Shown here piece after piece: positions 30,441-31,599 of a DNA stretch of 64,000 bases. The position numbers were made by a program, and so were the translations under genes. Location: positions 1,411 to 65,410 of the forward strand of contig DASTSC010000268.1 of assembly GCA_035760905.1 (NCBI GenBank), given 5' to 3'. Position 1 is the first letter of the stretch; each line of letters begins with the position of its first letter. The notes below the pieces were generated by a model that ran no database searches, was not told the DNA's origin, and was given only the letters and a program-made list of their open reading frames with translations. This DNA is from Candidatus Limnocylindrales bacterium. GTDB lineage: Bacteria > Chloroflexota > Limnocylindria > Limnocylindrales > CSP1-4.

Positions 30441-31217
30441 ATGGTCCGCACGGTCGCCGCGACGCGCTATGTCACCCCGTTCCGGGAGGGCGGCTCCGTG
30501 CCCGGTCTCGTCGAGGCCGACGACGACGGCCTCTACGTCGTCAAGTGGCGCGGCGCGGGCCAGGGCGTCAAGGCCCTCATCGCCGAGCTCGTCGTCGGTG
30601 AGCTCGGTCGTGCCCTCGAGCTGCCGATCCCGGAGATCGTCCTCGTCGAGCTCGACCCTCGCCTCGGCGCGGCCGAGCCCGACCCGGAGATCCACCAGCT
30701 GCTCGAGGCGAGCGGCGGGCTCAACGTCGGGCTCGACTTCCTGCCCGGGGCACTCGCCTACAACCCTGCGGCCGACCCGCCGATGGCGCCGTCGCTCGCC
30801 GCCGAGATCGTCTGGTTCGACGCGCTCACGACCAATCCCGATCGGACGGCGCAGAACCCGAACATCCTCGCCTGGCACGGGCGGGCCTGGCTCATCGACC
30901 ACGGCGCGGCGCTCTACGTCCACCACACCTGGCGCGACCCGGACGCTCACGCCCGGCAGCCGTTCCCCCGGCTACGCGATCACCTCCTCCTGCCGCAGGC
31001 CGGCTCGCTCGCCGACGCGGATGCGCGCCTCGCGCCACGCCTGACCCGCGAGCTCGTCGACGAGGTCGTCGGTCTCGTCCCCGATGAGTGGCTGGTCGCC
31101 GACGGTCGGTTCGAGGACGCGGCGACCGCCCGAGCGGCCTACGTCCGGTACCTCGGGCTGCGCCTCGACGCACCCAGGCCGTTCCTGCGCGACGTGGAGG
31201 GTGGTCGTGCCGCCTGA
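30441..31217 (+). CDS. HipA-like Ser/Thr kinase C-terminal-domain protein
   Basis: Kinase catalytic loop resembling HipA_C (FDALTTNPDRTAQNPNIL, with D-R-x3-N) and a DxG motif (LIDHGAAL). ATG at 30441 lies in the frame of listed ORF 30282..31217. Confidence 0.55.
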   Translation: MVRTVAATRYVTPFREGGSVPGLVEADDDGLYVVKWRGAGQGVKALIAELVVGELGRALELPIPEIVLVELDPRLGAAEPDPEIHQLLEASGGLNVGLDFLPGALAYNPAADPPMAPSLAAEIVWFDALTTNPDRTAQNPNILAWHGRAWLIDHGAALYVHHTWRDPDAHARQPFPRLRDHLLLPQAGSLADADARLAPRLTRELVDEVVGLVPDEWLVADGRFEDAATARAAYVRYLGLRLDAPRPFLRDVEGGRAA

Positions 31218-31599
31218 GACCCTGCCGGCCGCGTTCCAGTACGCGGTCCTTCGCGTCGTGCCGCGCGTCGAGCGGGGCGAGGCGATCAATGCCGGGATCG
31301 TCCTGCTCTGCCGGCCGCGGCGGTTCCTCGGTACGCGTGTCGGCCTCGACGCGGCGCGGCTGCGGGCGATCGCCCCGGACGCGGACGTCGACGCGATCCG
31401 CGGCCACCTCGGGGCGATCGAGCGGATCGCCGCCGGAGACGAGGACGCCGGCCCGATCGCTCGGCTGTCGCCGCCCGAGCGGTTCCACTGGCTCGTCGCG
31501 CCGTCGAGCACGGTGATCCAGCCGTCGGAGGCGCACACGGGCCTGACCGACGATCCGGCCGCCGAGCTCGAGCGGCTCTTCGCGGCCCTCGTGACGTAG
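31201..31599 (+). CDS. DUF3037 domain protein
   Basis: DUF3037 signature (FQYAVLRVVPRVERGEAINAGIVLLC). GTG start overlaps the end of the upstream gene by 17 nt. Confidence 0.65.
   Translation: MVVPPETLPAAFQYAVLRVVPRVERGEAINAGIVLLCRPRRFLGTRVGLDAARLRAIAPDADVDAIRGHLGAIERIAAGDEDAGPIARLSPPERFHWLVAPSSTVIQPSEAHTGLTDDPAAELERLFAALVT

Follow-up and report, generated by a model that had tools for sequence, protein, structure and literature searches.

A HipA_2-family kinase gene overlapping a bare DUF3037 gene: a putative minimal toxin–antitoxin-like pair in a Limnocylindrales genome

A 64,000-nucleotide (nt) stretch of a soil Chloroflexota genome (Candidatus Limnocylindrales, contig DASTSC010000268.1; the whole stretch is called the window below) carries a short gene for a kinase-like protein, the 3′ end of which overlaps a gene for a DUF3037 protein. 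A sequence-only reading of this locus proposed that the two genes form a candidate toxin–antitoxin-like or signalling module, which raises the question of what the pair is and how it might work. The answer favoured here, to which we assign a probability of about 60%, is a minimal module in which the kinase would be a toxin and the DUF3037 protein its neutraliser, acting by a toxin–antitoxin-like mechanism; we are less sure of phage defence as the biological role of the pair. Directly established are a compact kinase-like enzyme with its catalytic residues intact and, behind an internal Shine-Dalgarno element, an overlapping gene for a bare DUF3037 domain.

The two genes and their linkage across genomes

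The kinase open reading frame (ORF) opens with the ATG at 30441 and closes with the TGA at 31215–31217, which gives 258 codons and confirms the 258-amino-acid (aa) protein described earlier. Its start is consistent with the N-termini of homologues in the alignment. The G+C content of the window is 73%, and analysis by codon position gave a third-position G+C (GC3) of ~0.9 in both the kinase and the DUF3037 ORFs, which are therefore considered real genes. Each is present as a single copy in the window. The kinase matched the Pfam family HipA_2 (PF20613; E-value 8.8e-18, 64.9 bits with a gathering cut-off of 27, residues 13–229) and the PADLOC model PDC-M66A (E-value 5.1e-22, profile positions 9–244 of 270), while Pfam HipA_C and HipA_N gave no match at an E-value of up to 1. 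Of the claim that the protein is a HipA C-terminal kinase core, the kinase core is retained but the HipA_C family is not. NCBIfam provided a model for neither protein.

The second ORF lies in a different frame and ends with the TAG at 31597–31599. Its product covers the complete DUF3037 model (PF11236, positions 1–118 of 118; E-value 3.3e-44, 150.3 bits, cut-off 22.6), as the sequence-only reading had stated, and also matched PDC-M66B, with an E-value of 1.8e-9 over only positions 3–129 of that 281-position profile. Two in-frame GTG codons are candidates for its start, at 31201 (132 aa, 17-nt overlap) and at 31207 (130 aa, 11-nt overlap). The GTG at 31207 is the most likely start, because the GGAGG element at 31196–31200 lies 6 nt 5′ of it but abuts the other candidate, because DUF3037 homologues begin with MP-PE..., and because the product in the public annotation has 130 aa (P0121). 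The overlap reported earlier is therefore real, but its favoured length is 11 nt, as 17 nt would need the upstream GTG.

One genome per species was scanned for 185,579 species, giving at least 598 confirmed matches; the locus statistics reported here rest on the best 80 of these (80 loci, or 81 with the window). The 80 loci come from about eight phyla and include Chloroflexota, Actinomycetota (Solirubrobacterales, Gaiellales, Rubrobacteraceae and Acidimicrobiia), Acidobacteriota, Cyanobacteria, Gamma- and Betaproteobacteria and Myxococcota, together with one Verrucomicrobiia and one Clostridia metagenome-assembled genome (MAG). The DUF3037 gene lies immediately 3′ of the kinase gene, on the same strand, in 80/80 loci. 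In 78 of 79 it begins before the end of the kinase stop codon, with an overlap of 4–41 nt (most commonly 20 or 23 nt), and a Shine-Dalgarno-like motif is located 4–16 nt 5′ of the start in 72 of 79. Clustering of all flanking ORFs from the 80 loci and the window revealed no third conserved gene except antisense shadow ORFs, the next-best cluster being present in 19/81 loci and reflecting local synteny in one lineage. The divergence of the kinase and that of DUF3037 from the window copies are correlated across loci (r = 0.74), dN/dS is 0.24–0.39 for both genes, and both are under purifying selection. Given this invariable linkage, the overlaps, the lack of a third gene and the correlated divergence, the pair is, as judged from these comparisons, an autonomous and apparently translationally coupled two-gene unit. 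Both the conserved coupling and the co-occurrence across genomes envisaged by the sequence-only reading are thus borne out.

Homologues of the two proteins are numerous. Those of the kinase form more than 7,900 clusters at 90% identity, the best 120 being nearly all 250–277 aa long and 63–100% identical to the window protein; those of the DUF3037 protein form more than 7,300 such clusters, the best 120 mostly of 126–135 aa (maximum 160 aa) and 69–99% identical. Between the window and other phyla, identity is 54–68% for the kinase and 43–74% for DUF3037. A short partner is the rule, with a median of 132 aa (79 loci), and most of the top 150 representatives have ~126–140 aa. Four metagenomic proteins (P0342, P0276, P0325 and P0339) apparently join DUF3037 to Fic/DOC, PNPOx, NMO or a HipA_2 fragment. 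Such fused or longer DUF3037 proteins near this clade probably stem from gene calls affected by read-through or frameshifts; a true DUF3037–Fic or kinase–DUF3037 fusion would be informative. Relatives at 42–47% identity were observed in the gut Bacteroidota Parabacteroides distasonis and Bacteroides finegoldii, in Chondrinema and on Streptomyces megaplasmids. The plasmid records of Bacteroidota and Chondrinema (H4, NZ_OY725790.1; H6, NZ_OY725958.1; H9, NZ_CP111047.1) list a DUF3037 protein as well as a 'HipA family kinase', and the Streptomyces records (H7 and H8) list the kinase only.

Predicted structures and conserved residues of the two proteins

The catalytic loop NPDRTAQNPN (residues 132–141) and the DHG motif (residues 153–155) singled out earlier are both present in the kinase (Table 1). 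The residues invariant in the clade alignment are G17/G18/S19, K35, E49, D134, R135, N139, D153, H154 and G155, so that the core kinase motifs, EGGS (16–19), D134...N139 and D153, are all preserved. D134 is the predicted catalytic aspartate, N139 a predicted metal or phosphate ligand, and Lys35 is predicted from the kinase fold to bind ATP; the predicted catalytic Asp and ATP-binding residue, the loss of which would have spoken against the proposed module, are accordingly kept. Because the motif residues are invariant, the kinase looks active rather than a pseudokinase. Residues 16–18 of the Gly-rich loop have low confidence in the AlphaFold2 model. The aligned position in DS-6A, the HipA-like protein of the Escherichia coli DS-6 system, reads E-G-S-T, and D139 of DS-6A aligns with D134 (hhalign). 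HipA and HipT undergo autophosphorylation in the Gly-rich loop, and by analogy S19 may be an autophosphorylation site.

The AlphaFold2 model of the kinase (predicted local distance difference test score (pLDDT) 86.4, predicted template-modelling score (pTM) 0.88) shows a complete bilobal protein-kinase-like fold. It opens directly with the N-lobe, and the Gly-rich loop lies near the N-terminus; HipA N-subdomain-1 is therefore absent. The top match among solved folds was Helicobacter pylori CtkA (3akk; Foldseek E-value 1.9e-4, template-modelling (TM) score ~0.55–0.6), followed by Fam20 and by PI3/4-kinase-like folds (PI4KII-alpha and VPS34). The clade profile gave no alignment with E. coli K-12 HipA (hhalign probability 1.7%), and a profile search of the sequences in the Protein Data Bank (PDB) found no kinase and no solved relative of the clade. 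Direct kinship with E. coli HipA was rejected on these two results. The kinship to canonical HipA is remote, and the protein is labelled HipA-like because of its Pfam HipA_2 family and its fold only.

The AlphaFold2 model of the DUF3037 protein, a three-stranded sheet followed by helices, is of moderate confidence (pLDDT 74.7). A Foldseek search of the PDB with this model gave a best E-value of 0.12 and TM scores of at most 0.31, with HipS and HipA chains absent among the 50 matches listed, and a profile search of PDB sequences found nothing. HipS supplies the missing HipA N-subdomain to HipT. A similar mimicry, with DUF3037 replacing the N-subdomain that the window kinase lacks, was rejected on present evidence because both searches were negative. 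No helix-turn-helix (HTH) gene is found inside the window module and none is conserved in its relatives; the gene upstream encodes an AHSA1/SRPBCC protein. The analogy with HipB and HipS implied by the sequence-only reading finds no support on either count, as the DUF3037 model matches no solved fold and an HTH partner gene is absent.

Among representatives sharing less than 50% identity, the most conserved DUF3037 residues include the N-terminal signature Y12..R16.VP19...R23.E25..N28.G30, R92/F93/W95, S101 and H110. DS-6B, the partner of DS-6A, shares R16, E25 and N28. Within the clade the stretch ERFHWLVAPSSTVIQPSEVHTGL is nearly invariant, and the conserved Ser/Thr-rich stretch APSSTVIQPS lies partly in a low-confidence loop (residues 99–106, pLDDT < 50).

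Table 1. Positions of the kinase–DUF3037 pair, its motifs and neighbouring features in the window (DS-6A, HipA-like protein of E. coli DS-6)
Feature	Position	Strand	Basis or remark
HipA_2-family kinase-like gene, putative toxin, 258 aa	30441..31217	+	Pfam, PADLOC, AlphaFold2 model, hhalign
Gly-rich loop R15-E-G-G-S-V-P21	30483..30503	+	G17, G18, S19 invariant in clade alignment
Lys35 (VVKW), predicted ATP-binding lysine	30543..30545	+	Invariant; aligned to K of YVLKS in DS-6A
Catalytic loop N132-PDRTAQNP-N141	30834..30863	+	D134, R135, N139, N141 invariant
D153-H-G, predicted Mg-binding motif (DFG equivalent)	30897..30905	+	Invariant; aligned to IDHN in DS-6A
GGAGG Shine-Dalgarno-like element inside kinase 3′ end	31196..31200	+	Sequence
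11-nt overlap of kinase stop and DUF3037 start	31207..31217	+	Sequence; permits translational coupling
DUF3037 gene, putative neutralising partner, 130 aa	31207..31599	+	Pfam, PADLOC, hhalign; DUF3037 domain alone
PAC2-family gene	20265–21125		Upstream of pair
HTH-WYL-WCX (PafBC-like) regulator gene	24624–25772		Upstream of pair
415-aa GreA-fusion ORF	26166–27413		GreA/GreB N- and C-terminal domains confined to residues 266–415
Three direct copies of ~32-nt repeat	31625–31814		Spacing 74 and 84 nt
~109-aa ORF	31881–32210	−	ATG overlaps stop of ArsA-family gene (ATGA)
ArsA/HSP20-domain ATPase gene	32207–33406		In operon with ~109-aa ORF
Gene for 626-aa protein	33550–35430		No Pfam or PADLOC match
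KdpD-like sensor histidine kinase gene	35973–38567		DUF4118, GAF, HisKA, HATPase_c

Proposed mechanism, genomic setting and alternative readings

In the mechanism we propose, the overlap and the internal Shine-Dalgarno element would couple translation of the two genes so that both proteins are made together, and the DUF3037 protein would bind the kinase and hold it inactive. Loss or overriding of this restraint, for example when phage infection or stress depletes or displaces the partner, would free the kinase to phosphorylate an essential host protein. For the distant kinases HipA and HipT, an aminoacyl-tRNA synthetase plays this part. Such phosphorylation would then halt growth, resulting in abortive infection or dormancy. 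The window partner lacks the C-terminal half of HipD (as the antitoxin of the DS-6/HipAD system is annotated); should the model hold, neutralisation must therefore be the task of the DUF3037 domain alone, and the C-terminal half of HipD would have an accessory part in DNA binding or autoregulation.

The genomic setting was examined with regard to inheritance and mobility. A neighbour-joining tree groups the sequences by phylum or class, with a nearest neighbour from the same phylum in 68/81 cases for both proteins, and inheritance looks largely vertical. In two cases the grouping departs from the label of the genome: the pair of a MAG labelled Verrucomicrobiia (L019, ~3171–4347) nests in the Limnocylindria clade at a distance of 0.13–0.20 to Chloroflexota members, which points to a recent horizontal transfer or to mis-binning of the contig, and that of a Clostridia MAG (L066) groups with Acidobacteriota. 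Relatives are found on only 9 of 72,556 plasmids, mostly megaplasmids or chromids. The phage collection contains only two distant copies, one annotated as HipA (a HipAD pair) and one unannotated, and no close copies. Pfam and PADLOC revealed no genes for integrases, transposases or known defence functions among the annotated neighbours in the window, the WYL regulator excepted, and the neighbours examined in one Lysobacter and one Microcoleus locus include no mobile-element or defence genes. A defence-island or mobile-element context was rejected on these grounds, and the module, as far as these surveys indicate, is fixed in the chromosome rather than carried on a mobile element.

Several of these results weigh against the toxin–antitoxin-like mechanism and have to be set beside it. 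The functional data come only from homologues at ~23–28% identity. Since the window partner lacks the whole C-terminal half of HipD and of PDC-M66B, its regulation, and perhaps neutralisation itself, may differ. The DUF3037 model is of moderate quality only, and no relative of it with a solved structure was found. The gene tree agrees for the most part with taxonomy, the gene order around the pair is stable in Limnocylindria, the window neighbours include no mobile-element genes and no defence genes beyond the WYL-family regulator, and the family is almost absent from the plasmid and phage collections. Finally, conservation across phyla is unusually high for a toxin–antitoxin or defence pair.

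Several of these observations speak for an alternative, that the two genes are a domesticated housekeeping signalling pair. Its kinase would carry out routine regulatory or metabolic phosphorylation with DUF3037 as its obligate regulatory subunit, its adaptor or its substrate, and a cell that lost the partner would survive. Besides the very high cross-phylum conservation, the congruence of the gene tree with taxonomy, the rarity on plasmids and the lack of close phage copies, this account draws on the purifying selection on both genes, on the setting from PAC2, WYL regulator and Zn-peptidase through to HhH-GPD, which is kept in Limnocylindria with kinases at ~63–78% identity, and on the ordinary flanks of the examined Lysobacter and Microcoleus loci. 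An autoregulating antitoxin would also be expected to have a DNA-binding half, which this partner lacks, and the kinase fold resembles the lipid and small-molecule kinases PI4KII, VPS34 and Fam20 as well. Yet the homologues of both proteins form a phage-defence system in which loss of the partner makes the kinase toxic; a strictly autonomous two-gene unit that turns up in different contexts across phyla is a trait of selfish or defence modules; the distribution is patchy rather than universal, with at least 598 matching stretches in the species scanned; and no pathway genes are linked to the pair. We regard the housekeeping account as a serious but clearly less probable alternative. About equally tentative is a broader proposal, that the short-partner clade is an anciently fixed, vertically inherited growth-control switch instead of a mobile anti-phage system, that the HipAD systems of prophages branched off from it by acquiring a DNA-binding tail, and that DUF3037 is the universal gate of HipA_2 kinases. 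The hosts of such a switch may be soil and gut bacteria, among them Chloroflexota, Thermoleophilia, Acidobacteriota, Cyanobacteria, Lysobacterales and Bacteroidota, and gating would perhaps occur through the invariant Ser/Thr-rich loop as a pseudo-substrate.

A more active part for DUF3037, as a phospho-acceptor, a pseudo-substrate or a type VII-like antitoxin enzyme that would modify or undo what the kinase does, with its Ser/Thr-rich loop engaging the kinase active site, appears improbable. It would account for the near-invariance of ERFHWLVAPSSTVIQPSEVHTGL in spite of the partly low-confidence structure there, for the retention of R92, S101 and H110 at 83–94% across representatives of less than 50% identity, and for the conserved polar residues R16, R23, E25 and N28, three of which (R16, E25 and N28) recur in DS-6B. 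However, the C-terminal motif is not kept in DS-6B (S101 aligns with E, H110 with R and R92 with F), although DS-6B is the presumed antitoxin, and neither Foldseek nor the PDB profile search found similarity to a phosphatase or any other enzyme. That the genes are merely adjacent and functionally unrelated has a negligible probability: the same order and strand recur at every locus in about eight phyla, the start/stop overlap and the Shine-Dalgarno-like motif are conserved, divergence is correlated and the literature links both families (PMC12548924), so that the synteny data effectively refute chance adjacency. The toxin–antitoxin-like mechanism is preferred to these alternatives.

The neighbourhood of the pair has further conserved features. 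A MAG whose kinase is 78% identical (L081) shares its gene order with the window: genes for a TMEM260-like protein, the WYL regulator, the GreA fusion, a Zn-peptidase, DUF72 and AHSA1 proteins precede the kinase and DUF3037 genes, which are followed by a small AF_1253-family gene, ArsA, a protein of ~600 aa lacking a Pfam match, and HhH-GPD. Another MAG, with a 67%-identical kinase, retains PAC2, Zn-peptidase and WYL regulator genes upstream. In many Limnocylindria loci PAC2 and WYL regulator genes precede the kinase pair, and 18–19 of the 80 loci share the WYL regulator on its upstream side and the HhH-GPD gene on its downstream side. The WYL protein is the sole neighbour that matches PADLOC models, namely the generic WYL ones and, only weakly, Cas3c and Csa3. 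The AHSA1/SRPBCC gene, 22 nt upstream of the kinase gene, was considered as a module member and rejected, being common only to close relatives. The first ~265 aa of the GreA-fusion ORF have no Pfam match, and a long form (430 aa) is also present in L081.

A promoter and terminator scan and an Rfam search of 29400–32300 found nothing. The ~32-nt repeats, with the quasi-palindromic core CAATGTGATTG, sit in the 280-nt gap between the DUF3037 gene and a convergent small minus-strand ORF; the core has 3 matches in the window in total (0.33 expected) and no Rfam match, and three ATTCGTCCGNTGAAT-like motifs occur in the corresponding gap of L081 (11160–11370). That small ORF forms an operon, convergent to the kinase pair, with the ArsA/HSP20-domain ATPase gene, and its syntenic counterpart in L081 is annotated as Pfam AF_1253 (PF27253). 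In 7 related loci the pair is likewise followed by the gene for the 626-aa protein. Between it and the HhH-GPD gene lies the KdpD-like sensor histidine kinase gene, which looks like a local insertion because it is absent there in the syntenic L081 locus.

Comparison with known systems

The canonical HipBA and HipBST systems resemble the proposed module in having a protein-kinase-like toxin that is restrained by a small protein from the same operon and has a D-x-x-x-x-N catalytic loop and a Gly-rich loop containing Ser/Thr; HipT and other short Hip kinases, like the window kinase, lack HipA N-subdomain-1. The differences are that the window kinase has no HipA_C or HipA_N Pfam match, that a HipB-type HTH gene is absent, that the partner is encoded downstream rather than upstream of the kinase and that the DUF3037 model is unlike HipS (HipA N-subdomain-1) or any other solved fold. 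The text of a 2021 Hip-kinase phylogeny makes no mention of 'DUF', and the DUF3037-linked family was apparently not covered there. CtkA has a HipA-like character. It is, like the window kinase, a compact bacterial kinase, but shares only 11–14% identity with it, is titled a proinflammatory kinase in the PDB entry (3akk) and has no DUF3037 partner.

Closer parallels are found among defence systems. DUF3037 is strongly associated with HipA-like kinases, and in the Retron-Sda1 operon the kinase/DUF3037 pair alone defends against phage Bas51, with a protection of ~1 log; deletion of the kinase abolishes defence and deletion of DUF3037 is toxic, from which its authors concluded that DUF3037 neutralises a toxic kinase (PMC12548924). 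As in the window, kinase and DUF3037 form a stand-alone pair, and the N-terminal kinase motif GGS...YVIKF of Sda1 resembles GGS...YVVKW of the window kinase. In contrast to the window pair, the Sda1 DUF3037 protein has a C-terminal region like that of a retron-associated DNA-binding protein, an HTH gene lies upstream, and the pair adjoins the retron reverse transcriptase and noncoding RNA.

The DS-6 system of E. coli, identified with DefensePredictor, consists of DS-6A (HipA-like, 249 aa; WP_000389051.1) and DS-6B (275 aa, DUF3037 plus a DUF1829-like domain; WP_000210934.1) and protects against phage Bas1 by ~4–5 logs (PMC13092281). A D139A mutant of DS-6A was constructed and assayed, and mutation of a key predicted catalytic residue was reported to abolish defence; AlphaFold3 predicted a DS-6A–DS-6B complex with an interface predicted TM score (ipTM) of 0.76–0.79 and, more weakly, binding of DS-6B to DNA (PMC13092281). 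According to the same study, the system was also discovered independently, under the name HipAD (Brenes & Laub 2025). The pair carries the annotations 'HipA toxin' and 'HipD antitoxin' in Escherichia phage PhiR5_1 (PV340545.1), where it directly follows cI.

The window kinase clade aligned with DS-6A (hhalign probability 97%, E-value 5.6e-11, 199 columns, ~28% identity), and the DUF3037 clade with residues 3–126 of DS-6B (probability 86%, ~23% identity). The two kinases belong to the same family and are of nearly equal size (249 and 258 aa), with the Gly-rich loop, the Lys, the DRT..N loop and the IDH motif aligned. Both operons have the kinase gene first, with overlapping stop and start codons (by 4 nt in DS-6 and 11 nt in the window), and both partners begin with a DUF3037 domain. 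HipD, however, has 275 aa and a C-terminal DUF1829-like domain that is predicted to bind DNA, while the window partner has 130 aa and no such domain. A tblastn search of the window with the C-terminal half of DS-6B found no homologue (best E-value 2.9), and a split-off copy of this domain elsewhere in the window was rejected on this result. HipAD also lies beside cI in a lambdoid phage, whereas the window pair lies in a conserved chromosomal neighbourhood.

The idea of a toxin–antitoxin-like pair is therefore upheld in outline by distant homologues (PMC12548924, PMC13092281), but not as a novel kind, PDC-M66 and DS-6/HipAD being already described. Likewise, the statement that the pair is experimentally uncharacterised applies to the window clade and not to the family, for which DS-6/HipAD and Retron-Sda1 have been studied. 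Under the toxin–antitoxin model, the DUF3037 domain would be the part that neutralises the kinase and the C-terminal half of HipD an accessory. The chromosomal stability, the largely vertical descent and the setting outside defence islands raise the question of whether such pairs serve defence or physiological growth control, a question made testable by culturable carriers (Lysobacter, Streptomyces, Parabacteroides and Bacteroides).

PDC-M66 (PADLOC-DB v2.0.0) is itself a predicted candidate, validated through DS-6 and the Sda1 operon. The window kinase matches its A model, the window partner matches less than half of its B profile, and the genes are adjacent and co-oriented. Judging by these sequence comparisons, the window pair is of the same kind as PDC-M66 and E. 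coli DS-6/HipAD and not a new category. The kind itself has been published for distant relatives; what distinguishes the locus is a minimal, bare-DUF3037 partner in a chromosomally fixed and highly conserved clade, and the value of the locus is comparative.

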